In this document: piece by piece, positions 14,401 through 31,289 of the stretch | How the letters are laid out: each line of letters opens with the position of its first letter | How positions within the stretch are numbered: position 1 is the first letter of the stretch | Origin: Nostoc punctiforme PCC 73102 | Lineage (GTDB): Bacteria > Cyanobacteriota > Cyanobacteriia > Cyanobacteriales > Nostocaceae | DNA: 32,000 nucleotides | Direction: 5' to 3' | Assembly (NCBI RefSeq): GCF_000020025.1 | Contig: NC_010630.1 | Location: 90,001 to 122,000 of the forward strand | Notes under the pieces: generated by a model | The model's input: only the letters and a program-made list of their open reading frames with translations | Databases searched by the model: none | What the model was told of the DNA's origin: nothing | Position numbers and translations under genes: made by a program

Positions 14401-16817
14401 GACATTTGTTGACGAATTTCTTCGCTTTTAGGAATAGCGAATTTTGGTTCGAGCTTCTGTAAATCTAATACTTCAATCTCATAAAATGGCACCACCTCTA
14501 ATATCTGTTGTTCGCCACCAGACAGCACTACTGTCCGCAGCATATCGTGACGTTCAATGATTTTTTGCCAAGCGTTTGTAAGCCGTTTTATGTTTAAATT
14601 AATACTTTCAATCTCTATATAAACATGAGTGGCAACATTACTCAATTCAAAAGAATTACTGCGCCCCACCCAGTAAGCCTGTTGAATATCTGTAAGAGGG
14701 AAAGGCTGATAGCGCTGGTCTGGTGCAGAGATAATTTGTGACAGCGATAGCGCCGAATCCTTATTTTTCTGCTCTTGCAGTATGGTTTCTATATGTTCAG
14801 TTAAATCACCTATAGTTGCCGAATCAAAAAAGCTTTGTATTGGCAAATCTACTTTTAATTGCTCGCGTATCCGATAAGCAATTTGAGTTGCTAATAAAGA
14901 ATCAATTCCTAAGACTGTCAAGGGTTCACGTATATTCAATTTTGATGGATATATTTTTAACATCCTGGCGATCAGTTTTTGAAGATAAGATTCCAGTTGC
15001 CGCGTTCTATCTTCTGCTGGGGTGGCTAACAGCTCTTCGACATTTATTAATTCGATTCCTTCAAAGGAATCGAATTTTTCCAGAATACTACTGCCGATCG
15101 CATCCAGAGTATTTGCCAAGAACCCTGCCTTACAGGCATAATGCTGAACTTTACCGCTAGAAGTCTTCAGAATACCTCCAGGTTTGAGCAATACCACAGC
15201 ATAAACTTGTAATTCATGTTCTTCTGACACAGCAGAACGAATAGCTCCAACTACCTCTTCCACCTCTAAATTCCGGTAGTAAGCACGCTCGACCTCTTGA
15301 ATAACGACTAACCGCTCTTCTCCGTCTATTTCTACTGAAAAAGCCGCTCCACAGTTCGCTCGCAGAGACAAATGACTTTTTTGCACCGTAGATTCAATAT
15401 CCTGGGGATAATAATTGCGACCTCGAATAATAATTAAATCCTTCAGCCGACCCGTGACGAACAACTCGCCATCTTTTAAAAATCCCAAGTCCCCCGTCCT
15501 CAAAAATGGACCTGCTCCTGTATCTTGGAGGTAGGCTTGGAAAGTACGTTGGGTTGAGTCGATCTGGTTCCAGTAGCCTTGAGTTACACTTGCACTTGAT
15601 ACCCAAATTTCACCTATCTCATCGGAATTGCAGCGAGTCATTCGCTCTGGATGGACAATGACCACCCGCATATCCTGCAACGGTTGACCGCACCCCACCA
15701 GTGTTTGGGTGGCATCATCTGAATTACTAGCTGGAACTACCAGATGTTGCTCTAGCGCCGCTTTTTGGAAGGTTTGCAATACTGGTGGGGGCGCCACTAG
15801 ACCCCCAGAAACAATGAGAGTTGTTTCTGCCATACCGTAACAGGGGTAAAATGCTTCCCGGCGAAAGCCGCAATCAGCAAATGTGCTTGCAAACCGCTCT
15901 ATAGTTTCCGCTCGGATGGGTTCAGCTCCATTAAAAGCCACTTGCCAGGTACTTAGGTCGAGAGTTGACCGCTCTTCGGAAGTTATTTTGCTTGCACATA
16001 GGTCGTAGGCAAAATTAGGACCGCCACTAGTAGTAGCTTTGTACTTGGAAATAGCCATCAGCCATTGCAGGGGGCGCATCAGAAAGGCTGTTGGAGACAT
16101 GAAGATGCACGGGATGCCTAAGTACAGGGGCTGAAGTGTATTCCCGATCAAGCCCATGTCATGGAAAAGAGGCAACCAGCCGACAAAGATCGTTTGTTCT
16201 GTATGCTCGAATGCCGTCTGGATCAGTCGTTGGTTGTGCAACAGATTGCCATGATTCAACATCACCCCCTTTGGCGTTCCTGTAGAACCTGAAGTGTATT
16301 GGAGAAAAGCCAAGGTGTCTGGGGTTGCTCGATAAGGAATAAAGTCCTCAATCGGAATAAGATTATCAGTCGCGACGCACTTCAGCCCAAGGAAACCTGG
16401 ATTCTCAGCCTGACTATTTATATTGCCTAATACTGATGTGGTGCTCACCACCAGGGTTGCTTGAGCATCTATGGCGATCGCCTGCAATCTAAGCATCTTC
16501 TGATTCCGTCGGGGTGGGTAAGCAGGAACTGCGACAACCCCAGCATATAAGCAGCCAACAAAGGCAGCAATAAACTCAAAACCAGAAGGGTAGAGCAATA
16601 GAACACGATCTCCAGGAGTTGTTAAAGTTTGAAGTTGAGCGGCGATCGCTTGCGCCTTCTGGTCTAATTCTCGATATGTAATTTTCGCTGCTTCTGTCTC
16701 TCCGTCTTGCAGAAATAAAAAAGCTGTTTTACCAGCTTGGCTTAAGGATCTAAAGCGAATAATTTCAATAAAGTTAGCAACTTCCAGTCCAAGCTCAGAT
16801 ATATAAAACGAAACCAT
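11412..16817 (-). CDS. Loading/first-extension NRPS: fatty acyl-AMP ligase (FAAL) - ACP - Cy - A (Cys-type code) - PCP
   Basis: 1801-aa ORF. FAAL-type N-terminus: ITYRELDQKAQAIAAQL, LAFLQYTSGSTGTPKGVMLNHGNLLHN (~16265-16315), GWLPLFHDMGLIG. Carrier: LGIDSLLATQI (14881-14909). Cy: FPLTDIQQAYWVGR (14661-14702) and DLLLAD (14289-14309). A core: LAYVIYTSGSTGVPKG (~12850-12899) with specificity residues DLYNLSVIWK, a 9/10 match to the canonical Cys code DLYNLSLIWK. PCP: FFDLGANSIHL (~11608-11650). AAGGA lies 8 nt upstream of the ATG. Confidence 0.95.
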   Translation of the reverse strand: MVSFYISELGLEVANFIEIIRFRSLSQAGKTAFLFLQDGETEAAKITYRELDQKAQAIAAQLQTLTTPGDRVLLLYPSGFEFIAAFVGCLYAGVVAVPAYPPRRNQKMLRLQAIAIDAQATLVVSTTSVLGNINSQAENPGFLGLKCVATDNLIPIEDFIPYRATPDTLAFLQYTSGSTGTPKGVMLNHGNLLHNQRLIQTAFEHTEQTIFVGWLPLFHDMGLIGNTLQPLYLGIPCIFMSPTAFLMRPLQWLMAISKYKATTSGGPNFAYDLCASKITSEERSTLDLSTWQVAFNGAEPIRAETIERFASTFADCGFRREAFYPCYGMAETTLIVSGGLVAPPPVLQTFQKAALEQHLVVPASNSDDATQTLVGCGQPLQDMRVVIVHPERMTRCNSDEIGEIWVSSASVTQGYWNQIDSTQRTFQAYLQDTGAGPFLRTGDLGFLKDGELFVTGRLKDLIIIRGRNYYPQDIESTVQKSHLSLRANCGAAFSVEIDGEERLVVIQEVERAYYRNLEVEEVVGAIRSAVSEEHELQVYAVVLLKPGGILKTSSGKVQHYACKAGFLANTLDAIGSSILEKFDSFEGIELINVEELLATPAEDRTRQLESYLQKLIARMLKIYPSKLNIREPLTVLGIDSLLATQIAYRIREQLKVDLPIQSFFDSATIGDLTEHIETILQEQKNKDSALSLSQIISAPDQRYQPFPLTDIQQAYWVGRSNSFELSNVATHVYIEIESINLNIKRLTNAWQKIIERHDMLRTVVLSGGEQQILEVVPFYEIEVLDLQKLEPKFAIPKSEEIRQQMSHQILQTDQWPLFEIRATRFDEQRFRLHISIDLLLADYGSLLRLCQEWSQIYQHPDTTLKPLEISFRDYVITEKQLVHTELYKRAQEYWFKRLDTLPQSPQLPLAQNPYLLKQPQFKRRCSQLKSETWQQLKQRASQAGLTPSGILLTAFAEVLAIWSNSTEFTLNLTLYNRLPLHPQVNEIIGNTISLILLEVNNSTPASFTVRAQNLQRQLWQDLDHSYMSGVHVLRELARRQGSHQKALMPIVFTSILNNGSFIQDRSALNVFGEVIYSISQTSQVWLDHQVMEEDGKLVFNWDAVEDLFPEGLLDDMFEAYCEFLMLLATSDAVWREITYELVPKAQLLQRATVNSTDAPISGWMLHTLFAAQVEAREQDCAVISSQRTLTYLELFQLANQVGHRLRKLKTSPNTLVAVVMEKGWEQIVAVLGILMSGAAYMPIDPELPDERVQYLLKQGEVKLILTQSWLNERLTWIEGIPRICLDCDELVGEDSSPLDLVQSPDDLAYVIYTSGSTGVPKGVMLTHRGPVNTILDINQRFGITHQDRVLALSALNFDLSVYDIFGTLAAGGTLVIPEAERTKDPAHWVELMKQHKVTLWNSVPTFMQMLVEYLSAGLEKVPASLGLILMSGDRIPVNLPQQIKAIWEDVKVVSVGGPTETSIWNICYPIEKIDEQWKSIPYGKPITNQRYHVLNKFLEPCPVWVPGMLYAEGIGLAKGYWRDEKKTEESFIIHPRTQQRLYKTGDSGRFLPDGNIEILGREDFQVKINGYRIELGEIEATLLQDESVKEVVVTSTEKEHQSLVAYVVLNSNQKQSSQQHHQLKGVLLNSLEPVQESNSISKKLLNYLEQKLPSYMVPSDCVILNALPLNRNGKVDRKLLPKLNKNVLKPETGAVPPKTEIEQTLAKIVREVLQIEKIGVYDNFFDLGANSIHLVQINKNIKILMGIEVQMVEIFQNPSISYLAKFFSQHKGENKSFQAVAERAEKRKIAQQKRGMKRGKS

Positions 16818-17554: not shown

Positions 17555-19064
17555 TTGTATCCCACTCATGGTCAACCAACAGTTAGACCTTGGCGACTGG
17601 CGTTAATCTGTGTGCTGCAATTTATTGAAGATTTGCCAGATCGACAAGCTGCCGAAGCTGTCCGCAGTAGAATTGATTGGAAATATGTTTTGGGGTTGGA
17701 ACTGACTGATTCAGGTTTTGATTTTTCTGTGTTGTGTGAATTTCGCGCCCGATTGATGGTAGGTGGTGCAGAACAACAACTGCTAGACACGTTACTGAGG
17801 CAATTTAGAGAGCGCGGATGGCTCAAAGAAAGAGGAAAACAGCGCACTGACTCCACCCATGTGCTGGCTGCTATCCGTAACTTGAACCGACTCGAAGGGG
17901 TAGGTGAAACTCTACGTGCAGCCCTCAATTCACTAGCTACAGTCGCGCCCGATTGGTTGCGTTCATGGGTACCTTCAGAATGGTACGAGCGTTACGGTCG
18001 GGCTGTAGAAGAATATCGCTTACCCAAGGGCATTGCCGCACGCACCTGAATATGCCGAGATGATTGGCACAGATGGTATGCAGTTACTGATAGCTGTATG
18101 GGCAGAAACTGCCCCAGATTGGCTTGCTCATGTGCCCATCGTCGAAATTCTGCGACAGACTTGGGTACATCAATATTATGTGGAGAATGACCAAGTAAGA
18201 TTGCGGGCTGCCAGTGACTTAGCCCCTTCTGGTAGTCGTTTTGACTCTCCTTATGACATCGATGCTCGCTTTGGTAATAAACGCAGTGTGACTTGGACTG
18301 GGTATAAAGTGCATCTGACCGAAACTTGTGATGAGAACCAAGTCCATTTAATTACTCATGCCATTACCACCCAAGCTCAGGTTTCAGATGTTACACAAAC
18401 TGCATCTATTCACGAGGCATTGGCTGCCAAAGACCTGCTCCCCAGTCAACACATTGTTGATGCTGGCTATGTCGATAGTAATCTTATCGTCACTAGCCGT
18501 AAACAGTATGGAATAGATTTAGTCGGCCCAGTCCGCCCGAATGTTAGTTGGCAAGCTAAAACGCCTGGCGGTTATGATATCAGCCAGTTTACAGTGAGCT
18601 GGAATACAAAACGGGTGACTTGTCCTCAAGGTAAAAAAAGTACCAAAAAGTGGGTTCCGACTCAGGACAAGTGGGGCAATGCAGTGATTAACGTGAGATT
18701 CCCCCGCAAAACTTGCCGACTTTGCAACGCCCGTGCTTTATGCACCCGCTCGAAAACTGAGCCAAGAGAATTGACACTGCGCCCAAAGGCAGAATACCTT
18801 GCATTGCAAACCGTGCGACAACAACAGCTTTCCACGGATTGGAAAAAACTCTATGACGCAAGAGCAGGAGTTGAAGGAACGTTGTCTCAAGGAATTGGCA
18901 GCTTGGGGCTGCGACAAGCTCGCTACATTGGTTTGGTTAAAGTTCGGCTCCAGCACTTGCTGACTGCCGTGGCTCTTAATGTGGTGCGGATGGTTGCTTG
19001 GTTACATGGCCGAACCCATGCGAAAACCAGAATTTCTCGATTTGCTGCTTTAGCTCCAGTGTGA
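17555..19064 (+). pseudogene. IS1182-family-like DDE transposase, 5'-truncated and frameshifted
   Basis: Two consecutive ORFs (17555-18049 and 18033-19064) together resemble one transposase. Matches include LQFIEDLPDRQAAEAVRSRIDWKYVLGLELTDSGFDFSVLCEFRARL (DUF772-type N-domain), RTDSTHV, the cysteine cluster CRLCNARALC, and C-terminal ARAGVEGTLSQGIGSLGLRQARYIGLVKVRLQHLLTAVALNVVRM. The frame changes around ACC-T-GAA at ~18045-18050, with no slippery run. Roughly 40-50 N-terminal residues are missing, and in-frame stops lie just upstream of 17555. Confidence 0.8.
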
Positions 19065-19897: not shown

Positions 19898-20086
19898 GAG
19901 CAAGAAGGGTCACTCGCTCTACCACAGAGCGAATTTGGTTTGGATGTGATTGCTTATATAGGAGCGTTACGATACCAGGAACATAGAAGTGTTCCCCAAA
20001 TACACACTCACCTTGAATTAAAGGGTATATGTATAAGTCAAAGAACGGTCACGCACCTAATTGACAGATATGACGAATTACTTTCT
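19898..20086 (+). pseudogene. Internal fragment of a zinc-ribbon IS transposase (the part that should follow the 17244-17465 fragment)
   Basis: Plus-strand translation EQEGSLALPQSEFGLDVIAYIGALRYQEHRSVPQIHTHLELKGICISQRTVTHLIDRYDELLS (HTH-like). There is no start codon. Coding sense begins at 19898 and is lost at ~20086, where the TGTGATTTGAATCA block starts. Confidence 0.5.
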
Positions 20087-20205
20087 TGTGATTTGAATCA
20101 TAAAATAAACTTTTAGCTCACAATATGCTTCAGAAAGCATTAACCATTTTATGCTTCAAAAATCGGCGAAAAAGTAGAAGACATGTTCCATGTAATACAC
20201 AGTTA
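20087..20205. repeat. Candidate tns-distal end of the minus-strand Tn7-like element (terminal TGTG plus repeated ATGCTTCA sites)
   Basis: TGTGATTTGAATCA starts at 20087, exactly where the IS transposase fragment loses sense. ATGCTTCA occurs at 20125-20132 and 20151-20158, both in the same orientation. An inverted copy lies next to tnsAB at 27178-27185. Terminus not proven. Confidence 0.4.
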
Positions 20206-20286
20206 AGGGGTTAGATTTGGCAAAGCTGTCATGAAGTACAAACTAAACTGTTTAGTTTAAATATCAAGCATCACCATCTAAAGCCC

Positions 20287-20700
20287 TTAAATAGATACAG
20301 TTAAGATTTTAAACAACCAGTCTTCTAGAGGTACGCCGAATTCTTCTGGAATCTGTTGTTGTATCTTGGTGTATTGAACCTGATTCCAATATGCAGGATT
20401 AAATATACTGTGCGGAACTTCTACATCAACTAATTGTGGATTTTCCATAACACGACACCACATTCTGGCTCGATAATCAATTGTGAGGTTCCCAAAAGGT
20501 AACTCAATCCAATAATGCGGTGACACTTGACCATGCCCAACCCATCGGAACGAACCGTACCAAATTAGATGTTCAATACCCTCATTAAATAAAATAGTAG
20601 AGAGAACTTTGCTATGCCCATCACACTCCGTTGGGGAATTATTCCAAACACCTAATTCTTCACGTAGCTGCTCAATAAAATCATTATTCATTCCAAGCAT
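20287..20700 (-). CDS. Small hypothetical protein, possible transglutaminase-like / papain-fold cysteine peptidase core
   Basis: 137-aa ATG ORF. The spacing TECDGHSKVLSTILFNEGIEHLIWYG...SPHYWIELPFGNLTIDYRA fits the Cys...His(aromatic-x-E)...Asp pattern of transglutaminase-like cores. The assignment is by eye only. Confidence 0.55.
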   Translation of the reverse strand: MLGMNNDFIEQLREELGVWNNSPTECDGHSKVLSTILFNEGIEHLIWYGSFRWVGHGQVSPHYWIELPFGNLTIDYRARMWCRVMENPQLVDVEVPHSIFNPAYWNQVQYTKIQQQIPEEFGVPLEDWLFKILTVSI

Positions 20701-20812
20701 ATTTATTCTCCAATAGTACTTTCAATTTGCGAACTGTATTGATTGTCATATCAGCTTGTGTTGCTGTTTGACGCAATAATAATTTCTCATCAAGTGCTGC
20801 AATTACTCCTTG

Positions 20813-21781
20813 TTAAGCACGTTCTTCTTCAATTTCTTCAATTAACTGCTCAATCCAACTAGGTTTACCTGCTAGAATATCTACTTCAAACTCTGATAAC
20901 TGCTTTTTTTTCATCCGCCGCAAATCTCGCAATGCAGCAGTCGCATCTTCCGGGTTGTCAAATTTGTAATATTCAGTCAAACTCCCAATAGAGCAATTGT
21001 AGTCAGCATATCTATATTTAAAATATTTCTCTACATTCCCTCGATGCGACCAGTGTCCTAAAACTTTGATTGAAACATGAGAAAAATGTTTGACCAAATC
21101 AGTTTGAACTTCAGCTACGCGTGCTTGTATTTCCCGCCTAGTCACACCAATTTTATAAAATGTTTCTTTATCAGTATCAATTTGAAGGTAATACAGAGTA
21201 TTCGATAAAATTTTCTTTAATTCGGCGCGATATATTTGCAGATCCCAAAGACATTCATGAAAATTTGATGCATCATCAAGATAAGCAACTTGAACTTTTT
21301 TCTCTAACTGCTGCAACTTCTCCCACAATATTGATTCTTGCACTTGGTTGAACAGCATTAACGATAATGCACCAACAGGTATCTTACCTAGCTTGGTAAA
21401 CTGGTATTCTCCATAGAGACGGTATTCATTGTACTCTAACAATTTTTCTTTAATAAAAATTGAGTTAATTTTACTCTCATAAATACCTTTGTTCTTCCAT
21501 CCGTATCGATTCCAAAGGGTCTTGATCTGTTGGAGTTCTTTACCTGTTAGACATATATTGAAGTTATTGTATAAAGGTAAAGTAGGAATTTCACGTTCAC
21601 TGCGATTAGCTACTTCTCTGCAAGTAAAGTTAGTGTGTGCGAAGTGGTGTTCTTTACGATTTCCCTTTTTCGCCGTCAACTCACCACCACAGTAGGGACA
21701 CTTTAACTGAGTTCTCCCTCGTAGAACATCTTCAATCGGTACTAAGATCAAATCTAGGTCAACACCATACCTGAGCCACAT
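20813..21781 (-). CDS. CoiA-like zinc-ribbon N-domain fused to a T5orf172 / GIY-YIG-superfamily nuclease-like C-domain
   Basis: 322-aa ATG ORF. N-terminus LKCPYCGGELTAKKGNRKEHHFAHTNFTC matches the CoiA-type CPxC...K.G..R..HFAH motif. C-terminus FYKIGVTRREIQARVAEVQ...GNVEKYFKYRYADYNCSIGSLTEYYKF matches the T5orf172 pattern (YKIGxT, R, E..h, xEwF). Confidence 0.8.
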   Translation of the reverse strand: MWLRYGVDLDLILVPIEDVLRGRTQLKCPYCGGELTAKKGNRKEHHFAHTNFTCREVANRSEREIPTLPLYNNFNICLTGKELQQIKTLWNRYGWKNKGIYESKINSIFIKEKLLEYNEYRLYGEYQFTKLGKIPVGALSLMLFNQVQESILWEKLQQLEKKVQVAYLDDASNFHECLWDLQIYRAELKKILSNTLYYLQIDTDKETFYKIGVTRREIQARVAEVQTDLVKHFSHVSIKVLGHWSHRGNVEKYFKYRYADYNCSIGSLTEYYKFDNPEDATAALRDLRRMKKKQLSEFEVDILAGKPSWIEQLIEEIEEERA

Positions 21782-22093
21782 TTGGGAATACCTTTTATTT
21801 GATACACCAGGAAAGGTAGGCTTGAAAAGCGCGTAATGATATTTTACTGTATCAAAAAAAGCTGCTGTAAAATAAATAATTCTTAAGGAATTTATCTTAA
21901 AAAGAAATACGTTTAAATTCCCAAATTAACATTGTCCAGTCATAACCATCAGAATCAACTACACTAATGTACCATCTAAAAGAGGCTGTATACCTCTTTA
22001 ATGCCATTGACTTAACTAACATATTCTCTTCATCAGTAGCGTCGGAGCTATGACCTGCTTGAATTAAATCACCAACTCTAGTAATTTCATATA

Positions 22094-22372
22094 TTAATCA
22101 AGTGTTGAATAATCAGAAAGTTCTGTTGTTTCTAACTCACTTAAAAAGCCAGTTAATGCAAATGGACATTTACAACTAAGCTCTTTTTCTAAAAAATCAG
22201 CATTTAAGTGATATTCAAAACACACAGTATCAAAAATATCCTCAGTAGTTAATTCTAGATTTTCATCTAATTCCACTATTCGTGCTTCTATTAAGTAAAT
22301 TAGCTCTTTACTAGAGAAGTAAGTTTTGATTGTAGAAGTAATTATTAGATGATTTATTTTAGTAACTATCAT
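22094..22372 (-). CDS. Hypothetical acidic 92-aa protein, no recognisable domain
   Basis: ATG ORF in the same orientation and 31 nt downstream of the 138-aa ORF. Very AT-rich. No motif recognised. Confidence 0.45.
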   Translation of the reverse strand: MIVTKINHLIITSTIKTYFSSKELIYLIEARIVELDENLELTTEDIFDTVCFEYHLNADFLEKELSCKCPFALTGFLSELETTELSDYSTLD

Positions 22373-22403
22373 TTTAACTCTCCGATGATTTTAAACATAA
22401 TCT

Positions 22404-22820
22404 TCAAATTGGTAAATGCTGTTGTAAGATTGGGTGCAAAGAAGCAGCAATTGCCTCAAACTTATCACCATCTGGATAGGGACGAAGAATTTCCTCACCG
22501 TCTTCGTTCAACCACTCTTGTCGTATTGGAGTGTACTCAAGCGATAGAATTGCAGTTCTCCACCAGCCAGATAATGCTAAATGTTCCCCAGACCAAAATA
22601 GCCGGAAATCAACCTTCTTATTTCGATAAACTTCACTAATAGGATTAGAATAAGGACGGTTTTTAGGATCAAAAGTCTCAGTAAAATAGCCTTGAAAATC
22701 AATTACTAAAAAATCTTTTTTAATTTCTGCTGTTAATTTAAAACGAGAGTGTAGATAATGAGCAGATAAAATTTTAGCGGCTGCTAATTCAAATTCTATA
22801 GGTAAAGTAGATAAACTCAT
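22404..22820 (-). CDS. Hypothetical 138-aa protein occupying the position normally held by tniQ/tnsD; no Cys, no recognisable domain
   Basis: ATG ORF with AAGGA 12 nt upstream, 90 nt downstream of tnsC on the same strand. It has no zinc-finger cysteines or TniQ N-terminal motif. Confidence 0.6.
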   Translation of the reverse strand: MSLSTLPIEFELAAAKILSAHYLHSRFKLTAEIKKDFLVIDFQGYFTETFDPKNRPYSNPISEVYRNKKVDFRLFWSGEHLALSGWWRTAILSLEYTPIRQEWLNEDGEEILRPYPDGDKFEAIAASLHPILQQHLPI

Positions 22821-22910
22821 TAATTAATAATTTCCTTGAATACCGATGCGAACATTATTGAAAAATTGATACCCTTGATAAAAACTGTTTACTACTGAAT
22901 TTTTTGATGT

Positions 22911-24383
22911 TCACTCAAGTCCAACAGTGTCTCGTTTGGGTTTGCGTTGCCCAACACGTTGGGAAGACTTTTTAGGCATTTTCTGTTTAGTTGCAGCTTC
23001 ATCATCAATTGTCTTCTGTTCTATTATGGGACTGACAGTAATATTTGTTTCTAGTGGTGTCTCACTAATTGAAGAATCAGTTTGTTTTGTCTTCTTGCGA
23101 GTTTGTTTCTTCTTGGGGACTGGCTCTATAGAAGTTTTGCCTGGTGTAGTAGAAGGCGTTTCATCTATCGTAGAACTGACGGGCTTTTTACGAGTCCGTT
23201 TCGCTTGAGATGGTGGTTTGTCAGATTTCGGAGGCGATGCTACCACATCTGCTGCGCCCTTTGATAAATCCACCGCAGTTTTTGGTACAGATGTAGAACC
23301 CATTCCCATCTGTAGCAAATGCCACAAATGTTCACGGCGACTTTCCATATAAGAGAGTTTTTGTTCTCCCTCAGTGGTATCCAATGCCATACGTTCACAT
23401 TGGGCTAGTGTTAGGGTATGTTCATGCAATCTTTCTAAACTAAGAGTGTCGTGGCCATCATGTGCTACCGCTGCCACAGCCCGTATAAGCCAGTCTTTGA
23501 GTACCCCAACACAACCAATGCAACGTTCATAGAAATAAAGCCAATGCTGCATTAGCTCTCTTACATCAACATTCATCGGTACTTGCATCAGGAGTGCCAA
23601 TAATGCGGCTTGAAAATCCTGACGGTCAAGTTCATTTTGATACAGATAACGCGGAAAATGGATATCTAGTCCCCGCCGGGATGCTTGACCACTTAAATTG
23701 CGGAAATTTAGCAGTTCGTAAGTCCCAATGAGAATGTGTAGCACACCCGTAACGTTGGTCATAGACTTAATCCAGTCCAACTGGTCTAAAAGCTTACCAG
23801 CACTTGCACCAGTCCCAATCTTCATTAAGTGCTGTGCTTCGTCCAAAATCACCGCCCGCACTCCGCGTTTGGTCATCGCTTCTTCTAATGCGTGGCGCAG
23901 TTCGGGAGAATCATTAAACTGCGCTGTTTTAGTCCGGGAGCGTCCTTTCTTCTCCCAAGTCTGCTCCGCATCAATATCTATCAGCATCCGCCGCTCATAG
24001 AATGGTTCTCCCAAAAGCTTTAGCGCAGTGCGGTAATAATCTGCGCGATTAAACACCCCACCGTCAGATGGTCGTGTTTCTAACAGCAATAACGGCATCA
24101 GGGGCTGACTGCCGTTACGATAGCTTAAGGAATTGGATACACCTGGTAACTGTTCGGGTACATTCTCATTTAACCGTTTAGCAATCTGCCGAATCATCGT
24201 TGTTTTACCCACACCGCTTGGCCCATAAACCAACACATGAGCAAATCCGGCGGGTTCTCGAATCGCACGCATCAACAACATATCTACCCGTGCTAACTGG
24301 GGATGTAAAACTGCATACTCCTTAAACTGAGTTAGTTTGAGGTGCATTTGGTCGTTTTGATTAAGGCTCTCCAAATTGTCCAT
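22911..24383 (-). CDS. tnsC: TnsC/TniB-like AAA+ transposition ATPase with a ~125-aa K/P/S/T-rich disordered insert before a conserved C-terminal tail
   Basis: 490 aa. Walker A: YGPSGVGKTT (~24198-24226). Walker B: AVILDEAQHL. Also GVLHILIGTYELLN. It is collinear with the 379-aa plus-strand paralog. The start overlaps the tnsAB stop by 1 nt (TAATG). C-terminus: ...SSQRVGQRKPKRDTVGLE. Confidence 0.9.
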   Translation of the reverse strand: MDNLESLNQNDQMHLKLTQFKEYAVLHPQLARVDMLLMRAIREPAGFAHVLVYGPSGVGKTTMIRQIAKRLNENVPEQLPGVSNSLSYRNGSQPLMPLLLLETRPSDGGVFNRADYYRTALKLLGEPFYERRMLIDIDAEQTWEKKGRSRTKTAQFNDSPELRHALEEAMTKRGVRAVILDEAQHLMKIGTGASAGKLLDQLDWIKSMTNVTGVLHILIGTYELLNFRNLSGQASRRGLDIHFPRYLYQNELDRQDFQAALLALLMQVPMNVDVRELMQHWLYFYERCIGCVGVLKDWLIRAVAAVAHDGHDTLSLERLHEHTLTLAQCERMALDTTEGEQKLSYMESRREHLWHLLQMGMGSTSVPKTAVDLSKGAADVVASPPKSDKPPSQAKRTRKKPVSSTIDETPSTTPGKTSIEPVPKKKQTRKKTKQTDSSISETPLETNITVSPIIEQKTIDDEAATKQKMPKKSSQRVGQRKPKRDTVGLE

Positions 24384-27100
24384 TAACGGTATTCCCCTAG
24401 TATCGGCAGTCGTGTGAGATCCAACAGTTCAATGTTGTTTTGCAGTGCTGGCAATTGTTCGTCATCTTGACTGTGTGCTTCTATCTCCGGCTCAAGAGTG
24501 CTGACTGGGGGAAACTGGGGTACACCTTCCTTATTGAGTGTTAAATTCTCCAGTACCCCAACAGCTTCCAAATCCCGTAATCGTTGCATGAGTAAGATTT
24601 CATGTTCTTGCACCGCCGCGATGAAGTCTGCAAGGCGTTTGGCAGAGATATTTGTACTCACAGCATTACGCTTATCTTGCTGTCTGATTTCTTGGGCAGC
24701 TAATAGCACTTCTTTCTCCGTGCGTCCGGCAAAGGTGCTGTAATACTGGGAGATACATTTGACCCATCTTCCCTCTAAGTACGCATAAGCTACACCCATA
24801 TCAAAAGGGTCATAGCGTACACTGACTTTGGTCTTTTCGACAACCGGATTGCGGAAAGCATCGTTCCAGTAATAAAGATAATTGACTTTAATTCCCTGTC
24901 CCGGCTGAACTTTAGCGTTGCCTTTGGGTGTACTAGGGCGTGTTGCCATGAGAAAGTCTTCGTTGTATGCAATACGTCGGTGTTCCCTCTCCCCTGTGGC
25001 AGCCATTGCGTCAGTATAAACTTGTAATGGTGTCTCACCCAAGGAATCATGTACGCTTGTGTCATAAATGGTGTATGCCCACTCACTCAGGTAGGTATGT
25101 AAAGAAGCTAATGTCCAAACGGCAAGTTGTTTGGGGTCAACAGAAGAAGTGAGTTGACGCGGTTGTTTACTGGCTTGGGTGTTGCCCAGTAAGTTAAAGA
25201 TAAATTCAGTATTAGTTGTTCCGAATAATCGCTCAACTACTGAGCCAAAACGAGGTTTTGCACCAGGACGAGTCTTTTTGATGCAGTGGTAGCGTGCTAA
25301 TAAGGTATCAAAGTAAACGCTATGAAATTCCTTACCGCCATCTACAACTACAGATTGGGGAAAACGACCAAAACGCTGGACGCACAACCGTAGTGCCATC
25401 ATGCAAGACCTGTAACTGGGTGGGTCAAAGGTGAGATAAACTGCTAAGATGCGTCGGGAGTAGGCATCAATCAGTAATGTCAGCCAAGGTCGTCCTAAGT
25501 TCCGACCAGTTACTTGGGAGCGTAATTCGATATCGAGTTGGGTGTGGTCAAGATGACAGATAGCAAAAGGTCTGTCTCCATGCCGGGGTGTAGTTCTAGC
25601 TAGTTCTAAGACAATCGGTTCTGTTGCGTATGCGGCTTTTGCTCCCTGACGTTTTAAAGTCTGCTCATGGATTGGACGCTTTTTTAGCCGAGTATAAAAT
25701 GTGCGCTGACTCAGTGGAGGGATGTTGGCTGTACAGCAGGCTCTTGTATATGCCCGATAAACGGAAGCGGCTGGAGCTTGCCTTGGTGTCTCGAAGTGTT
25801 CTGTAATAAATTTATCTAGTAAAACGCTGGTATCTGTTGGTGCTTTGGATAGGCGATTTCCTCTATTATTTGTACGTGGGAGCAAACCAACATAACCGCA
25901 ACCAAAAGTGGCTTCCGCTTCCCGAAACTGTTTTACCCATCGAGATAAGGTGCTTTGAGGTATGTCCTTCCCTATATCTGTGTGATGCTGGAAATATGCT
26001 TGTACTAAATGAAATCTGCGATTGGCTCTTTGTAGATCCGCAGGCGAGGCGGCATCCATCAATTCACGCACTCCCTCATTGATGGTTGTTTGTTTTTCTG
26101 AGGTGAGAATATTGATAGTGCTACTGTCGAATAATTGCAGAAAAAATGCTGTGGGCAATTGCATTGGTTGCCCGACTGCGGGTAGCAGTGTGGTTGTAGT
26201 CTCGCCCAAGTTAACTAAAGTCCAAAGTTGTGAGTCCCAGACTAATAAGGTATTAGGCAAGAGTGTTGTGGGTGAGGTGATTTTTCGATGATCCCCAGTT
26301 GTCCCTATGGCTAAATATGTATGAGCAGTATGAGTTTGCTCATCTGCCCATAGCTGAACTCGCCAATGTTCCACTAGGGGAACTGCATACAAGTCCACGT
26401 AGAGTTGCTCTGTGGCAATCATGGCGTAAATATCGTTAGCACGCACTCCGGGAATGGTTGCAAGTGTGGCGGCTATAGTTATTCCTGGACTGGCTTTAAC
26501 TGAAGACAGTATTTGTTCTGTAATGGAAAGGGGGACATTGGCGGTGAACCTAAAGTAGTCTTCTAAAAACATTAGGTTCTGGGTGAATATGGGATTTAGT
26601 TCGGTATCGGTGCGAACATGATATTTGAGTCCATAAGATTCGGCGTAAGCTTCTCCTGGTGGGCAATGCCAATGACCAGTTTCAGTTTTTTGGTAGCGTG
26701 AAGGGTATTTTTGGGCTAGTCGTTTTAATTCGGTTTCGGTTTTCCATTCTTCCCAAGCTGCACCTGTCGTCCGCAGTACGAAGAAGTCTGGGGTATGGTA
26801 ATGACCTATATTTCGTCCGTTTTGGTTTTGGTACTGAATTTTAAATGGAGGTGGTTGGTCGTAGAACTCTAACACCTGTGGGTCGTGTTCCATTTGGTAA
26901 ATCGCCCATAGTTCTACTGTGTGGCTCTCAAATTGAATGGTTTGACCCATTTTGCGGCTAGGGTAAACTCCACTGACGTTCTTAGCGCGTCCTTGTACTC
27001 TGCGAGAAGGTGGGGCAGCGCGAATTGCGGCGATTATTAAGAGTATTTGTGCCGTTAGTTGCTGTTGCTTACACCAATGGTCAAATTCATCGTCTGTCAT
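24383..27100 (-). CDS. tnsAB: TnsA-TnsB fusion transposase (N-terminal TnsA-type endonuclease domain + HTH + DDE/RNase-H core + Mu-transposase-type C-domain)
   Basis: 905 aa. TnsA-like catalytic pattern: FESHTVE...YHTPDFFVL...EEWK (E...D...ExK). DDE core: HLDHTQLD, LLIDAYSRRILAVYL, GSVVERLFGTTNTEF. C-domain: VNYLYYWN...VRYDPFDMGVAYAY. Acidic/hydrophobic C-terminal tail: LDLTRLPILGEYR. Confidence 0.9.
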   Translation of the reverse strand: MTDDEFDHWCKQQQLTAQILLIIAAIRAAPPSRRVQGRAKNVSGVYPSRKMGQTIQFESHTVELWAIYQMEHDPQVLEFYDQPPPFKIQYQNQNGRNIGHYHTPDFFVLRTTGAAWEEWKTETELKRLAQKYPSRYQKTETGHWHCPPGEAYAESYGLKYHVRTDTELNPIFTQNLMFLEDYFRFTANVPLSITEQILSSVKASPGITIAATLATIPGVRANDIYAMIATEQLYVDLYAVPLVEHWRVQLWADEQTHTAHTYLAIGTTGDHRKITSPTTLLPNTLLVWDSQLWTLVNLGETTTTLLPAVGQPMQLPTAFFLQLFDSSTINILTSEKQTTINEGVRELMDAASPADLQRANRRFHLVQAYFQHHTDIGKDIPQSTLSRWVKQFREAEATFGCGYVGLLPRTNNRGNRLSKAPTDTSVLLDKFITEHFETPRQAPAASVYRAYTRACCTANIPPLSQRTFYTRLKKRPIHEQTLKRQGAKAAYATEPIVLELARTTPRHGDRPFAICHLDHTQLDIELRSQVTGRNLGRPWLTLLIDAYSRRILAVYLTFDPPSYRSCMMALRLCVQRFGRFPQSVVVDGGKEFHSVYFDTLLARYHCIKKTRPGAKPRFGSVVERLFGTTNTEFIFNLLGNTQASKQPRQLTSSVDPKQLAVWTLASLHTYLSEWAYTIYDTSVHDSLGETPLQVYTDAMAATGEREHRRIAYNEDFLMATRPSTPKGNAKVQPGQGIKVNYLYYWNDAFRNPVVEKTKVSVRYDPFDMGVAYAYLEGRWVKCISQYYSTFAGRTEKEVLLAAQEIRQQDKRNAVSTNISAKRLADFIAAVQEHEILLMQRLRDLEAVGVLENLTLNKEGVPQFPPVSTLEPEIEAHSQDDEQLPALQNNIELLDLTRLPILGEYR

Positions 27101-27546
27101 GAGAATGCTTCTCTTTGCCAGGAGGCGGTTTTAGGCTTTCAGTACGCAATACCAAACTACAGAGGCATGGTTTTAAGTGAAGCATATCTTGGAATTTTGA
27201 ACCATATTTTGAATTGAAAGTTTATAAGTGGGCAATTTTTTCAAAGATTTTTTGTGCAAGTTTCATTCAATTGTGTTTTTTCAACTCATTTTTTAATTAT
27301 GCTTCAGAATTTTAACTCTCTCTCATGATTTGATTCAAAGTTTTATGTTGGGATTGGTGAGAAAGTCCGAAATTGCGTTAACTCTTGTCACTTAAAGGAT
27401 ATTGTGGCCGTTTTTAAACCATAAAGTGGCCGCAGTCATCTGAACTGGTAAGTATAAATATTTATATCAATAAAAGACTGTTTAACTGGCGAAAGCCTAG
27501 ATTTGTGGTAAGAGCTTGTTGCGGCTTTAAAAGCTTGGGGGCCAAT
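27101..27546. repeat. Divergent spacer holding the tnsAB-proximal transposon end(s): dense AT-rich short repeats
   Basis: TGAAGCAT (27178-27185, inverted) and ATGCTTCA (27299-27306). ATTTTGAA x2 (27193, 27206). TTTTTTCAA(A/C)..ATTTTTT x2 (27236, 27274). TGATTTGATTCA (27326-27337) matches TGATTTGAATCA at 20089 at 11/12 (13/15 over the extended block TGATTTGA.TCA.A). TGTGGCCG / GTGGCCGC lie at 27403 and 27425, and TGGTAAG x2 at 27446 and 27505. Confidence 0.45.
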
Positions 27547-30156
27547 ATGTTGAGCGACCAAGAGTTTAATGATTGGTGTCGCGGCGTAAATTTACCACAA
27601 GAGGCTAGGCAATTAATTTCCCAAATCCGTGCCTCTGAACCAATTCGGCGAGTCAAAAGCAGTGGTATAAATGTCCGGGGCGACTACGCCAGTCGCAAAA
27701 TGGGAAAAACTATTCAATTTGAGTCCCATAAAATTGAATTGCCAGGTGTAGAGGAGTACGAAGAAGACGCAGATGTACTCGAATACTACGACCAAGCATA
27801 TCAAATTACTCTAGAATTCCCCTCAAGCAGTGGGGAAATAATCAAAGCTTCGCATATACCAGACTTTTTCGTAATTCGGAAGCGGAGTGCAGGTTTTGAA
27901 GAGTGGAAACCAGAATCAAGATTAGAAAAATTAGCAGCTAAACAATCACAACGTTATATGCGTTCAGAAGATGGGCAGTGGTTAAACCTGCCAGCAGTTG
28001 CTTATGCAGAAAAATTAGGACTGTATTACCGAATTCGGTTAGATACAGAAATTGATTGGATTAAATACAGAAATCGACTATTTCTCAAAGCCTATACTAC
28101 TGAAGATTACCAAATTGACCCAGAAATAGCTGAAAATTTGGTGAAGTTAATTAGCTTAAATCCGGGCATAAGTTATTGGGAAATGATTCATACTCAACAG
28201 AGCAATCCTGATGACATAAATGCTTTAATAGCTACAAAAAAAATTTACATTAATTTGAGTGCCGCACCCTTAGCAGAGCCAGAAAAAGTACAGCTTTTCC
28301 GTGACCAAGAAATCGCGGTAGCTTATGTACAAATGATAAAATCGCAACCGAATAATGGAACGATTCTGAATATTTTAGATGTTAAACCCAATCAACTGGA
28401 ACCTAAAACTCATAATCAAGTAAAAATGTCTCCAAAAGCAATGGAGCGTTTTTTGAGAGCTAGTCCTGAAGACTTGGCAGAAGCTAACCGAAGATATGAA
28501 GTAATTGAACCTTATCTTAATGACAGTTATAGAGATAAAGAAACTGTTCCACAACGTACTATTCGCAGATGGAAGGCTAAGTTTATAGCAGCACAAAAGG
28601 CGTACAAATGTGGTTATATTGGGCTGCTAAATAACTCTAATGCTAGAGGCAATCGCTTACCCAGAATTTCTCAATCGTCTCAAGATTTCATTGACAAAAT
28701 AATTGAAGAATATTATGAAACTTTTCAACAAAGAAGCAAACTAGCTGTTTATGGAATTCTAGCAAGAGAATGGGAGAAAGCAGGTCTAACAGATAAGCTG
28801 CCTAGCTACGCTACATTTTGTTCTAGAATTCAACATCGTTCTGGTTATAGGCAAACAAAAAAACGTAAGGGAAACAGAGCAGCTTATCAACAATCTTTAT
28901 TGTATTGGGAGTTGAAATTAACCACACCATGTCATGGCGACCGTCCATTTGAGATAGCACACATTGACCATACGCAACTGGATATTGAGTTAGTATGCTC
29001 CCGAACAGGTTATCTTCTTGGTAGACCTTGGGCAACTCTGTTAATCGATGCTTACAGCCGACGTATTCTCGCAGTTTACCTAACTTTTGACGAGCCAAGC
29101 TACCGTAGTTGCATGATGGTATTAAGAATCTGCGTACAGCGATTTGAGAAATTACCAGAGACAATAGTTGTTGACGGTGGGACAGAATTTAGTAGTACAT
29201 ACTTTGAGACCTTGTTAGCGGCTTTTGAATGTACCAAAAAGCAGCGACCAGCTGCGAAAGCCAGATTTGGTTCAATTATTGAACGTATTTTTGGAACTAC
29301 AAATACAGAGTTTTTTTATAATCTTAGAGGCAACACTCAAATTACTAAGAATGTCCGCCAAGTCACGAAATCAAATAATCCCAAAAATCAAGCTGTTTGG
29401 ACACTAGATCAACTCTACGAAAACTTTTGTTCATATTGTTACGAATTCTATGATTGCAGAGAACATCCAACATTAGGACAAAGCCCACGTCAAACTTTTA
29501 TGTCAGGGCTAAATTCAAGTGGTTATCGCCCTCAGAAACAGATTATTTATGATGATAATTTTAAGATTTTTACCTTACCTTCTACACCTAAAGGAACTGC
29601 AAAAGTTCAACCAAGTAGAGGCGTGAAAATTAATTATCTCTACTATTGGTCAATTGATGATTCGTTCATAAGACCAGAAATTGAAGGAACTAATGTACCT
29701 ATTCGTTACGACCCTTTTGATATGGGGACTGCTTATGCTTACGTTAAGGGACGTTGGATACGCTGTATTTCTGAACATTACAAATCCTTCCAAAATCGTT
29801 CCGAAAAAGAAGTGAACATAGCCAGCACACAATTACGTCGAAAAAGGCAGAAACACGCTCAAAGAATTACTCTATCTGCCCAAGAAAAAGCTACATATTT
29901 AGAAGGAACTGAAGCCCAAGAAACTTTGTTATTACAACGCTTACATGATTTAGCACAACAAGATATTTGGGTTTTAATTGAAAAAAGCTCAGTTATTGAA
30001 AGTAAATTAAGTAAACACAATTATTCAGCTAATGTTCAAGATGTAGATAAAAATATTTTGGCAGGTTCAGAAAGCATTAAAAAGCCAAAATCATCAGCAA
30101 AAAAATTAATAGATTTAACCAAAATAGAAGCTTACAATACAGAGGAGCTATGGTAA
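27547..30156 (+). CDS. tnsAB: TnsA-TnsB fusion transposase (paralog of 24383-27100)
   Basis: The ORF track starts at GTG 27505. I prefer ATG 27547 because MLSDQEFNDWCRG aligns with MTDDEFDHWCKQ of the paralog. TnsA pattern: FESHKIE...HIPDFFVI...EEWK. DDE core: HIDHTQLD, LLIDAYSRRILAVYL, GSIIERIFGTTNTEF. C-domain: INYLYYWS...IRYDPFDMGTAYAY. Confidence 0.9.
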   Translation: MLSDQEFNDWCRGVNLPQEARQLISQIRASEPIRRVKSSGINVRGDYASRKMGKTIQFESHKIELPGVEEYEEDADVLEYYDQAYQITLEFPSSSGEIIKASHIPDFFVIRKRSAGFEEWKPESRLEKLAAKQSQRYMRSEDGQWLNLPAVAYAEKLGLYYRIRLDTEIDWIKYRNRLFLKAYTTEDYQIDPEIAENLVKLISLNPGISYWEMIHTQQSNPDDINALIATKKIYINLSAAPLAEPEKVQLFRDQEIAVAYVQMIKSQPNNGTILNILDVKPNQLEPKTHNQVKMSPKAMERFLRASPEDLAEANRRYEVIEPYLNDSYRDKETVPQRTIRRWKAKFIAAQKAYKCGYIGLLNNSNARGNRLPRISQSSQDFIDKIIEEYYETFQQRSKLAVYGILAREWEKAGLTDKLPSYATFCSRIQHRSGYRQTKKRKGNRAAYQQSLLYWELKLTTPCHGDRPFEIAHIDHTQLDIELVCSRTGYLLGRPWATLLIDAYSRRILAVYLTFDEPSYRSCMMVLRICVQRFEKLPETIVVDGGTEFSSTYFETLLAAFECTKKQRPAAKARFGSIIERIFGTTNTEFFYNLRGNTQITKNVRQVTKSNNPKNQAVWTLDQLYENFCSYCYEFYDCREHPTLGQSPRQTFMSGLNSSGYRPQKQIIYDDNFKIFTLPSTPKGTAKVQPSRGVKINYLYYWSIDDSFIRPEIEGTNVPIRYDPFDMGTAYAYVKGRWIRCISEHYKSFQNRSEKEVNIASTQLRRKRQKHAQRITLSAQEKATYLEGTEAQETLLLQRLHDLAQQDIWVLIEKSSVIESKLSKHNYSANVQDVDKNILAGSESIKKPKSSAKKLIDLTKIEAYNTEELW

Positions 30157-31289
30157 AAATTCAGTCGCACTCTTTTCCAGAAGAACTTCTCTTACAGCCG
30201 AACGAAATTAAAACTGATTATTTCAAAAGTATCACTATTCCACATCAAAGGCTCAAACAAGCCTTAGATACTTTATTAATTAATATTCTGGAGCCAGCTG
30301 ACACTTTAGTATTTTTAGTTTTTGGTGTGACTGGTGTAGGAAAAACAACCTTACGCTTGCGTCTGGAAAATCTGCTAAATTACGAATTTCTCCCCTCATT
30401 ACGCCAAAATCCTGGTCAAATTGCTGTTGCTGGTATTGAAGCTATTCCAACAGAACAAGGAAAGTTTAGCTATAAAGATTATTACACTCGCGCCCTAGAA
30501 TCCCTTCAGGAAGTTTTGATTGAATACAAAATTGATTATGAAATTCCTCACGGTGAGGTAAAGGATTTGGGGTTGCTAAATCGGGCTTACCGCCAAGATT
30601 CGCCCGCATTACGCCGAGCAATGGAAAAAGCATTTCGTTATCGTCAGGTAAAAGCTTTTACTGTAGACGAGGCACAGCATTTATTTATGATGGCAGGCGG
30701 ACACCAGATGTTACAGCAAATGAACTGGATTAAGTCTATTGCTAATCTTACTGGTACAGTACATATTTTATTTGGAACTTATGAACTGCTTAACTGTCCT
30801 ACCTTGAATGGGCAAATAGGGCGGCGTAGCGAAGATATTCACCTGTTACCTTACCAAGCTGATAACCCAGAAGATATTGCTGAATTTATTAGAGTAATTA
30901 GAACTTTTCAACGCCACATTCCGCTTGTACAAGAACCAAAATTAGAACAACACTATGAGTATCTTTTTTCTGGCTCAGTTGGTTGTGTGGGGCTATTGAA
31001 GAATTGGTTAACTCGTTCTTTGAGAGTTGCCTATTCTGAAGAAGCTCGGACTCTTAATAGCAAACATCTTAAATTAGGTGCTTTTTCTGCATCTCGTATC
31101 AACAAAATTAAGGAAGAAGCACAACAGGGATTTAAACGCTTTCAAGAAGAATCCAGTTTTTTTGAGCGGCAATATTCAACAGAACATGGAATAAAAATGC
31201 CAGCCAAAAATTCCCTACTCAAAAAAGGTCGTGTTGGACAAAGAAAACCTAAAAGAGATGATGTAGGGGTAAATTCAGATGATGACTAA
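30150..31289 (+). CDS. tnsC: TnsC/TniB-like AAA+ transposition ATPase
   Basis: 379 aa. Walker A: FGVTGVGKTT. Walker B: AFTVDEAQHLF. Also GTVHILFGTYELLN. C-terminal tail: GRVGQRKPKRDDVGVNSDDD. The ATG overlaps the tnsAB stop (ATGGTAA). Confidence 0.9.
   Translation: MVKIQSHSFPEELLLQPNEIKTDYFKSITIPHQRLKQALDTLLINILEPADTLVFLVFGVTGVGKTTLRLRLENLLNYEFLPSLRQNPGQIAVAGIEAIPTEQGKFSYKDYYTRALESLQEVLIEYKIDYEIPHGEVKDLGLLNRAYRQDSPALRRAMEKAFRYRQVKAFTVDEAQHLFMMAGGHQMLQQMNWIKSIANLTGTVHILFGTYELLNCPTLNGQIGRRSEDIHLLPYQADNPEDIAEFIRVIRTFQRHIPLVQEPKLEQHYEYLFSGSVGCVGLLKNWLTRSLRVAYSEEARTLNSKHLKLGAFSASRINKIKEEAQQGFKRFQEESSFFERQYSTEHGIKMPAKNSLLKKGRVGQRKPKRDDVGVNSDDD

Follow-up and report, generated by a model that had tools for sequence, protein, structure and literature searches.

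In the window analysed here, a 32,000-nucleotide (nt) stretch of Nostoc punctiforme PCC 73102 (contig NC_010630.1, positions 90,001 to 122,000), a Tn7-like transposon carries two adjacent genes, one for a 322-aa predicted nuclease and one for a 137-aa protein (ORF137). A first-pass annotation, made from the sequence alone, had proposed this pair as a candidate defence-type module. We found that the pair is not a conserved two-gene (defence) system. The best explanation, which we hold to be reasonably probable, is that the nuclease is a homing-endonuclease-like protein that has lost its C-terminal tail, that ORF137 is an independent accessory enzyme of mobile elements, and that the two are cargo of the Tn7-like element whose adjacency reflects the history of one lineage. 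The two open reading frames (ORFs) lie 112 nt apart on the minus strand where the first-pass annotation had placed them. In window coordinates, the features of the pair are the following, where L003 and L009 denote loci of Nostoc sp. ChiQUE02 and Mojavia pulchra, respectively.

20813..21781, minus strand: gene for the 322-aa nuclease (ORF with Pfam matches to CoiA_N, MUG113 and T5orf172)
21620..21724, minus strand: CoiA_N-type zinc ribbon, residues 20-54, CPYC...HHFAH...C (Pfam PF25164)
20924..21196, minus strand: T5orf172/MUG113 domain, residues 196-286 (Pfam PF13455 and PF10544)
20684..20812, minus strand: in-frame remnant of a helix-turn-helix (HTH) tail (direct reading, alignment and blastn)
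21782..21895, minus strand: leader upstream of the nuclease gene, with the left boundary of the block common to L003 and L009 (blastn)
20287..20700, minus strand: ORF137, 137 aa, with conserved Cys26, His62 and Asp75, predicted to be papain/transglutaminase-like (ORF)

Conservation of the pair was evaluated at 80 loci encoding relatives of the nuclease, which were taken from GTDB contigs (one genome per species) with flanks of up to 10 kb and were searched for ORF137 by tblastn with the window proteins and with a profile of the ORF137 family. A relative of ORF137 lay within 7 kb of the nuclease gene in two of these loci, L003 and L009, and a distant one lay ~8 kb from a nuclease-family gene in a third (L085). 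None of ten further contexts of ORF137 relatives (six phage contigs, Pseudomonas, Paenibacillus, Pseudonocardia, and a cyanobacterial plasmid-like contig) contained a member of the nuclease family, and the pairing is thus confined to one small Nostocales clade. Among the loci searched, the adjacency of the two genes was seen only in the window, in two other Nostocales genomes and as a decayed relic in Fischerella. Co-occurrence in other genomes, by which the first-pass annotation had proposed to judge its module, therefore largely fails.

In the closest homologue of ORF137 (L001/L002, 93.7% nt identity), the nuclease gene is absent and ORF137 directly abuts orf92, a small ORF that borders the cassette in all related loci. 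Homology between the window and L001/L002 extends over orf92 (22338..22108) and returns at 20711, 11 nt before the ORF137 start. The interval between orf92 and ORF137 is 1,396 nt in the window (22107..20712) as compared with 23 nt in L001, where an orf92-like frame stops three bases before the ORF137 start. Of the 1,396 nt, 210 nt are unique sequence and the remainder is the nuclease gene with the tail remnant. The interval is thus the site of a presence/absence polymorphism with sharp limits that affects just the nuclease gene and may reflect either insertion or deletion. Homology to L003 and L009 begins sharply at 21895/21894 (blastn), and the block 21895..20286, comprising the leader, the nuclease gene and ORF137, has sharp boundaries common to both loci. 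In both, this block is inverted with respect to the TnsC-orf138-orf92 block and with respect to a 94-nt block at 20179..20086.

The 112 nt between the two ORFs, a distance correctly given by the first-pass annotation, turned out not to be a plain intergenic spacer. Continuing the frame of the 322-aa ORF beyond its stop gives EEERA*QGVIAALDEKLLLRQTATQADMTINTVRKLKVLLENKYAWNE* (asterisks indicate stop codons), which matches the tail of ~400-aa homologues, indicating that the gap is the remnant of an HTH tail. The homologues of the nuclease fall into two length classes of ~305-330 aa and ~390-412 aa, and most of those closest to the window protein (69-85% identity) belong to the long class. The ~80 extra residues of the long form constitute a C-terminal tail of the type ...KKWGQHIGRP...SSQRVIAALDKGLSLRQTATQANVAINTVRKVK..., and one intact tail scanned alone matched HTH_psq with 21.1 bits against a cut-off of 20.4. 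Many other HTH models, including the resolvase HTH_7, match the tails weakly. By blastn, 23 nt of the window (20836..20814) stand in for 131 nt of L003, so that 108 nt (36 codons) are deleted in frame from the window copy, and a TAA stands at the junction (20813-20815). The old stop of the remnant (20684-20686) overlaps the start of ORF137, and in the intact relatives L003 and L009 the stop of the nuclease gene lies 17 nt inside ORF137, i.e. the two genes overlap. By these alignments, the window nuclease is derived from the ~400-aa form by C-terminal truncation.

Loss of the tail occurred independently in P0029 and P0035 of the same clade, and the more distant bulk of the nuclease family is naturally short. 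The number of lineage-specific derived changes was 14 in the window copy versus 3, 11, and 5 in close relatives, which is no clear excess. Since the window protein retains all residues invariant in the family and short forms occur naturally, it may still work; it resembles the natural ~310-aa short forms and possibly remains active with altered or relaxed targeting. In Fischerella thermalis, the HTH tail and ORF137 are all that is left, ORF137 being interrupted by a stop at codon 77. The 359-aa gene upstream of this relic was considered as a swapped nuclease and was rejected for lack of any relationship to the family; the relic represents a cassette truncated at its 5' end. Thus, intact, tail-deleted, 5'-truncated and nuclease-free states of the cassette are on record.

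The surroundings of the Fischerella relic (L004-L007, 8912-10612) include a DUF3987 primase/helicase-like gene, a family-B DNA polymerase, and a TnpB/IS605 element, and look like a plasmid- or element-like replication region. A protein identical to the window nuclease is annotated in Nostoc punctiforme, and in strain NIES-2108 the same gene is the sole one on a contig of 1,123 nt (L008) that ends 18 nt before ORF137. Four independent Logan contigs (L088-L091) all break ~90 nt into ORF137. These breaks suggest that the ORF137 region is present twice in the same genomes, the second copy perhaps being free of the nuclease gene.

The above results bear on the proposal of a two-gene defence or abortive-infection module, in which the T5orf172 protein would be the effector and the papain-like ORF137 a sensor, activator or protease regulator. 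Such a module would suit a location in AT-rich transposon cargo, the stop-to-start overlap in L003 and L009, and the integrity of the cassette kept through the inversion. In addition, nuclease proteins of the GIY-YIG, CoiA and DUF4041 types came from a functional defence screen (PMC9519451). However, PADLOC is blank for both proteins as system components, pairing is limited to the two loci described above and is lacking from the ten other ORF137 contexts, the closest ORF137 copy has no nuclease gene, and a census of neighbours revealed no recurrent defence partner. Neither a defence-island context nor a conserved pairing was found in the 80 loci and the neighbour census, and nothing pointed specifically to defence. 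We consider a two-gene defence module decidedly unlikely. The first-pass annotation was right that the pair corresponds to no named system in PADLOC, NCBIfam or PHROGs. In PADLOC-DB 2.0 the nuclease matched a single model, for RT (E 0.03), and ORF137, orf92 and orf138 matched none, and the searches of NCBIfam and PHROGs with both proteins gave nothing usable, the sole signal being phrog_681 "endonuclease" at E 0.0028 for the nuclease.

The domain assignment made for the 322-aa protein was borne out by Pfam, in which CoiA_N (29.4 bits, gathering cut-off 26.3, residues 20-54), MUG113 (33.7 bits, cut-off 22.3, residues 209-286), and T5orf172 (25.9 bits, cut-off 20) all scored above their gathering thresholds. 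In 12 aligned homologues, the zinc-ribbon residues C28, C31, H45, H46, H49, and C54, arranged as C28-P-Y-C31 ... H45-H46-F-A-H49 ... C54, are invariant. The window copy keeps the nuclease-domain motifs YKIGVT, R247-G-N-x-E251, and T-E270-Y-Y-x-F. Of these, YKIGVT, R247, E251 and E270 show a conservation of 90% or more, up to invariance, across the family and would correspond to catalytic residues of GIY-YIG enzymes. The 322-aa protein is thus a predicted nuclease of the zinc-ribbon/T5orf172 type (GIY-YIG superfamily) with presumed catalytic activity. The ratio of nonsynonymous to synonymous divergence (dN/dS, Nei-Gojobori) was 0.16-0.21 for the nuclease, and for ORF137 it was 0.18-0.33 against more distant loci and 0.48 against the closest relative. 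Both are under purifying selection, which indicates that they are genuine genes. An Rfam scan detected no intron or other RNA, and the nuclease gene is therefore not intron-borne. Sequence searches of the PDB with both proteins yielded chance-level matches only.

The nuclease family is large, patchy and almost entirely cyanobacterial. A search for homologues yielded 1,207 clusters, for which NCBI uses the name "GIY-YIG nuclease family protein" or "competence protein CoiA family protein", and 150 matches were found in GTDB representative genomes. Two to three copies per genome occur in, for example, Fischerella PCC 9431, Tolypothrix campylonemoides, and Amazonocrinis, and some copies are plasmid-borne (L011, L021). 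When all flanking ORFs were clustered, the most widespread neighbour was common to at most 12 of 81 loci. The 143 immediate neighbours were heterogeneous, including small-molecule methyltransferases, DM13, topoisomerase, a photosystem reaction-centre protein (psbA-type), RF-1, integrases, and UvrD and SNF2 helicases. PADLOC applied to the neighbours detected no recurrent defence partner, its mad2, ZorE and GajB matches reflecting generic methyltransferase, HNH and UvrD domains. In 11 of the 81 loci (L018 at 11418-11756 on the minus strand, L019, L028, L029 and L080 among them), small HNH endonuclease ORFs of ~100-112 aa lie a few hundred bases downstream of the T5orf172 gene, an arrangement that resembles the homing-endonuclease 'islands' described in phages.

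Three marks of homing endonucleases were thus found in the family: a nuclease domain fused to DNA-binding modules, of which the window copy has the ribbon only; a sharp presence/absence at an otherwise homologous site; and a patchy, multi-copy spread with no conserved operon partner. Taken together, the multiple copies, variable neighbourhoods, precise presence/absence and several stages of decay fit the population signature expected of a selfish nuclease. In the mechanism that we propose, the N-terminal C2H2-type zinc ribbon and the ancestral C-terminal HTH would position the T5orf172 catalytic domain on a specific DNA site. The nuclease would then cleave alleles that lack the gene, and these would acquire it, on occasion together with its neighbours, by recombinational repair. 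Possibly, the nuclease gene was inserted just upstream of ORF137, and both were later moved and inverted together.

The T5orf172 domain represents a GIY-YIG subfamily that in phages occurs in free-standing homing endonucleases, in which zinc-finger modules determine the specificity and the modules are subject to recombination and in-frame deletion (PMC10448857). The cyanobacterial family resembles these phage homing endonuclease genes (ICP1 gp53, gp121, gp130, gp174, and relatives; PMC10448857) in several respects. Both combine a T5orf172 domain with a zinc-finger module; both are free-standing, modular and multi-copy, in variable neighbourhoods often near conserved genes and ORFs resembling homing endonucleases; and both show in-frame deletions in their DNA-binding parts. 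There are also differences. The ribbon is of the CoiA_N type (CPxC...HxxH) here, whereas CapR, DUF723, and DUF4397 modules are described for the phage proteins (PMC10448857). A C-terminal HTH is added in the long form, and the cyanobacterial genes reside in chromosomes, plasmids and transposon cargo instead of lytic phage genomes, their homing being a proposal from comparison of loci. The family, with its CoiA_N ribbon and optional HTH, is already generically annotated in databases.

CoiA itself shares with the 322-aa nuclease the N-terminal zinc ribbon, but the remainder is replaced by T5orf172, and no other CoiA model appeared among the Pfam matches at E<=1. Since only the ribbon matches, the nuclease is not an orthologue of CoiA and the name "CoiA family" is misleading. 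Homing endonucleases of the I-TevI type join a GIY-YIG catalytic domain to a zinc finger and an HTH, which is the same logic as that of the long-form nuclease, although the catalytic domain is N-terminal in I-TevI and central or C-terminal in the cyanobacterial protein. To our knowledge, the two have no detectable similarity outside the superfamily core, and the cyanobacterial nuclease is not intron-encoded.

The same family data could also be read as those of an anti-phage or anti-plasmid nuclease that acts alone as cargo of transposons and plasmids, with ORF137 being unrelated to it. T5orf172 nucleases are active in phage-satellite conflicts, as exemplified by Odn and CapR (PMC10448857), and the functional defence screen mentioned above can be cited here too. 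Members of the family are often found on plasmids (L011, L021) or beside helicases, and purifying selection (dN/dS ~0.2) is in line with such a function. Nevertheless, no PADLOC model matches, the neighbours are mostly housekeeping or miscellaneous genes and not defence islands, and the multi-copy, patchy and decaying spread is more typical of selfish endonucleases. A single-gene defence function is on the unlikely side in our estimation.

ORF137 belongs to a widespread family of its own. The protein matched nothing in Pfam, PADLOC, NCBIfam or PHROGs, and a word-indexed search returned only four relatives. An exhaustive HMMER search of 1.84 billion representatives yielded 508 relatives at E<=1e-3 and 76 at E<=1e-10, mostly of 110-160 aa. 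A second profile search gave 499 family proteins, all annotated as "hypothetical" and devoid of Pfam domains. They originate from Pseudomonas, Paenibacillus, Pseudonocardia, Labilithrix, cyanobacteria, and metagenomes. Relatives occur on phage contigs of 42-330 kb; in a region of P. aeruginosa resembling an integrative and conjugative element (ICE), with UmuD-type, ImuB-type and resistance genes; in a Paenibacillus region that also codes for an LPD1 polyvalent-protein domain, a topoisomerase and a reverse transcriptase; in a Pseudonocardia region with an integrase and a resolvase; and on a plasmid-like contig from a cyanobacterium, where ParA, a Tn3-type transposase, an integrase, and a group II intron are present. 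This occurrence on phages, ICE-like regions, and plasmids argues for a role in mobile elements, where ORF137 would most likely serve as a thiol-dependent hydrolase or transferase.

In an alignment of 99 sequences of the family, C26, W64 and D75 are invariant, and E25, D27, G28, H44, G49, H62, R77, M80, W81, P96, H97 and G98 are at least 90% conserved. The Cys...His...Asp pattern that the first-pass annotation had noticed thus corresponds to C26, H62 and D75. AlphaFold2 with an alignment of five sequences reached a predicted local distance difference test score (pLDDT) of only 40, and a confident model (pLDDT 91.5, predicted template-modelling score 0.86) needed ~100 remote relatives. In this model, ORF137 is a small alpha/beta protein in which a helix begins at Cys26 (residues 26-39) and is followed by strands 45-53, 57-67, which contains His62, and 72-75, which ends with Asp75. 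The predicted order, with a helix that starts at Cys and later strands that carry His and Asp, matches the core of papain and transglutaminase. Foldseek against the PDB gave nothing significant, the best match being 2hly (E 0.06, probability 0.77, TM score 0.43). The next ones, all at E>1, were the thiol-protease-like domain of the Pasteurella toxin, vasohibin-2, and arylamine N-acetyltransferase. The 2hly structure is classed among papain-like families (PMC10318531) and served as a modelling template in a study of lasso-peptide biosynthesis. Of 59 ORF137-family members, two touched Transglut_core3 (best E 8.7e-4) and one touched Transglut_core (E 0.096). From the conserved residues, the model, and these weak fold and profile matches, ORF137 probably has the Cys-His-Asp core of the papain/transglutaminase type that the first-pass annotation had suggested.

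ORF137 has in common with small papain/transglutaminase-like proteins (APC5867/Atu2299, i.e. 2hly; lasso-peptide B2 proteases, Transglut_core3) the Cys-His-Asp order and a length of ~115-160 aa. It differs from them in the lack of a Pfam match, in the TM score of 0.43, and in a context that is neither lasso-peptide-related nor biosynthetic; H44, R77, W81, and P96-H97-G98 are specific to the ORF137 family. The family, which has no Pfam model, could reasonably be proposed as a new member family of the papain-like superfamily. Pfam scans of multi-domain relatives revealed no informative fusion. On phage contig L093 (5998-7776, plus strand), the ORF137 domain is fused to a P-loop domain resembling polynucleotide kinase/RNA ligase, and on phage contig L094 (6341-7717, plus strand) it is followed by a HAD-hydrolase protein. 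These arrangements hint at a link to nucleic-acid end repair. In Aliterella atlantica (L085, 18501-19410, minus strand), the gene for a distant relative of 137 aa runs 8 nt into a downstream ORF of 167 aa, which has a C...HAW...DPT motif of its own and looks like a second transglutaminase-like gene, with no Pfam match.

Several observations weigh against the interpretation of the pair as a homing-endonuclease-like gene beside an independent accessory gene. The nuclease gene and ORF137 show similar synonymous divergence (dS), overlap stop-to-start in L003 and L009, and were inverted there as a unit with respect to their flanks, so that functional or transcriptional coupling within the clade is conceivable. 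A short-form member of the nuclease family occupies a syntenic position in seven Nostoc genomes, which would fit a domesticated host function too, and purifying selection on the nuclease is likewise compatible with such a function. Homing, and with it a cleavage site, is a prediction from sequence comparison. As for ORF137, the papain-like call relies on weak fold scores (E 0.06, TM 0.43), and the conserved H44, E25, D27, and H97 could form a metal site instead.

The common boundaries at 21895 and 20286, the inversion as a unit and the stop/start overlap could also mean that the nuclease gene and ORF137 form a self-mobile two-gene cassette. The papain-like protein would then be a functional partner of the nuclease or a payload that homes along with it, such as an enzyme for anti-defence or establishment. 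We regard such a cassette as unlikely. If it were real, the ~500-cluster ORF137 family would represent a new class of mobile-element thiol enzymes in conflicts among phages, plasmids and hosts.

The element that carries the two genes comprises, besides the pair, the following features.

20086..20179, no strand assigned: conserved terminal block of the Tn7-like element, likely its left-end region (homology with L003)
22094..22372, minus strand: orf92 (tblastn matches in L001, L002, L003, and L009)
22404..22820, minus strand: orf138, directly downstream of tnsC (homologue in L003)
22911..27100, minus strand: Tn7-like core (Pfam Tn7_TnsA-like_N, rve, Mu-transpos_C, AAA_22, and TniB)

The core encodes a TnsA-TnsB fusion of 905 aa (24383-27100, minus strand; Tn7_TnsA-like_N, rve, Mu-transpos_C) and a TnsC/TniB-type ATPase of 490 aa (22911-24383, minus strand). 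The pair lies downstream of TnsAB, TnsC, orf138 and orf92, all on the same (minus) strand, between the tns core genes and the conserved candidate end of the element. A drop in GC content to 0.33-0.37 over 20000-23000, from 0.45-0.47 in the tns genes, together with the tns genes upstream, agrees with the AT-rich transposon cargo described in the first-pass annotation. The transposon end that it had placed at 20087 was supported as well: the 94-nt block 20086-20179 is 87% identical to 8547-8640 of L003, the second copy of the element, and homology stops at 20086. A search for repeats found an imperfect inverted pair of 31 nt (20105-20135 and 27195-27225, the latter near the end of tnsAB) and no clear array of binding sites at the transposon ends, for which the L003 breakpoint was used instead. 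The two ORFs after tnsC, orf138 and orf92, which had been called unrecognizable, have no profile matches in Pfam, PADLOC, NCBIfam or PHROGs, and their homologues stand next to a TnsC fragment in L003 (77% and 63% aa identity, respectively). The comparison of the window with L003 supports a location of the cassette inside the Tn7-like element in two genomes.

A Pfam scan detected no TniQ/TnsD in this element, in which tnsC is followed by orf138 and orf92. This raises the question of whether the zinc-ribbon/HTH protein acts as an accessory or target selector of a TniQ-less Tn7-like element. The presence of TnsAB and TnsC without TniQ, next to a neighbouring element with a TniQ-like ORF, would be in line with such a role, as would the weak matches of the HTH tails to the TnsD profile (E 0.0025-0.039) and the position of the cassette inside the element in the window and L003. 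However, the TnsD scores are 13-17 bits against a gathering threshold of 32.4 and cover a generic HTH. The window-type TnsC was found in the window and L003 only, among 81 loci with flanks of up to 10 kb, and the window's TnsAB/TnsB was matched at none of the family loci. Moreover, the window copy has lost the very tail in question, and we know of no precedent for a catalytic nuclease domain in a target selector. A role in target selection is highly improbable; a substitute for TniQ was rejected because, of the 81 family loci, just the window and one more have the window-type TnsC.

A second Tn7-like element lies head-to-head with the first, ~400 bp separating the two tnsB starts. It encodes TnsB (883 aa, 27505..30156), TnsC (379 aa, 30150..31289) and a TniQ-like ORF from ~31279 that runs off the window. 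The C-terminal ~130 residues of the TnsC of the first element (22911-23300) are of low complexity, rich in Lys, Pro, Ser and Thr, and have no counterpart in the neighbouring 379-aa TnsC. To the left of the pair, an insertion-sequence transposase (17555-19064, plus strand; DUF772 and DDE_Tnp_1_6) is divided between two ORFs (164 and 343 aa) that overlap, and a frameshift is therefore suggested. In L003, the truncated TnsC is adjoined by a transposase that has these Pfam domains too and shows 25% identity by tblastn. A non-ribosomal peptide synthetase (A-T-C-A-T, 1801 aa) and a polyketide synthase (KS-AT-DH-KR-ACP, 1853 aa) adjoin the mobile-element cluster as a hybrid gene pair (5854-16817, minus strand). 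No tRNA gene or tRNA attachment site was detected within the window, and a scan for promoters and terminators gave a yield no higher than that for shuffled sequence.

The value of the present analysis is corrective: what appeared to be a plausible new defence pair is better described as a homing-endonuclease-like nuclease and an unrelated gene that became neighbours in one small lineage. It also gives a caution that domain content and AT-rich cargo can lead to over-calling of defence systems. The ORF137 family emerges as ~500 clusters lacking a Pfam model, distributed over several phyla in phages, ICE-like regions and plasmids. Filamentous cyanobacteria harbour a large multi-copy zinc-ribbon/T5orf172 family of ~1,200 clusters that is labelled "CoiA family". 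If this family homes, it could shape genome rearrangement and mark the boundaries of genetic exchange, as has been shown for the T5orf172 homing endonuclease genes of phages.

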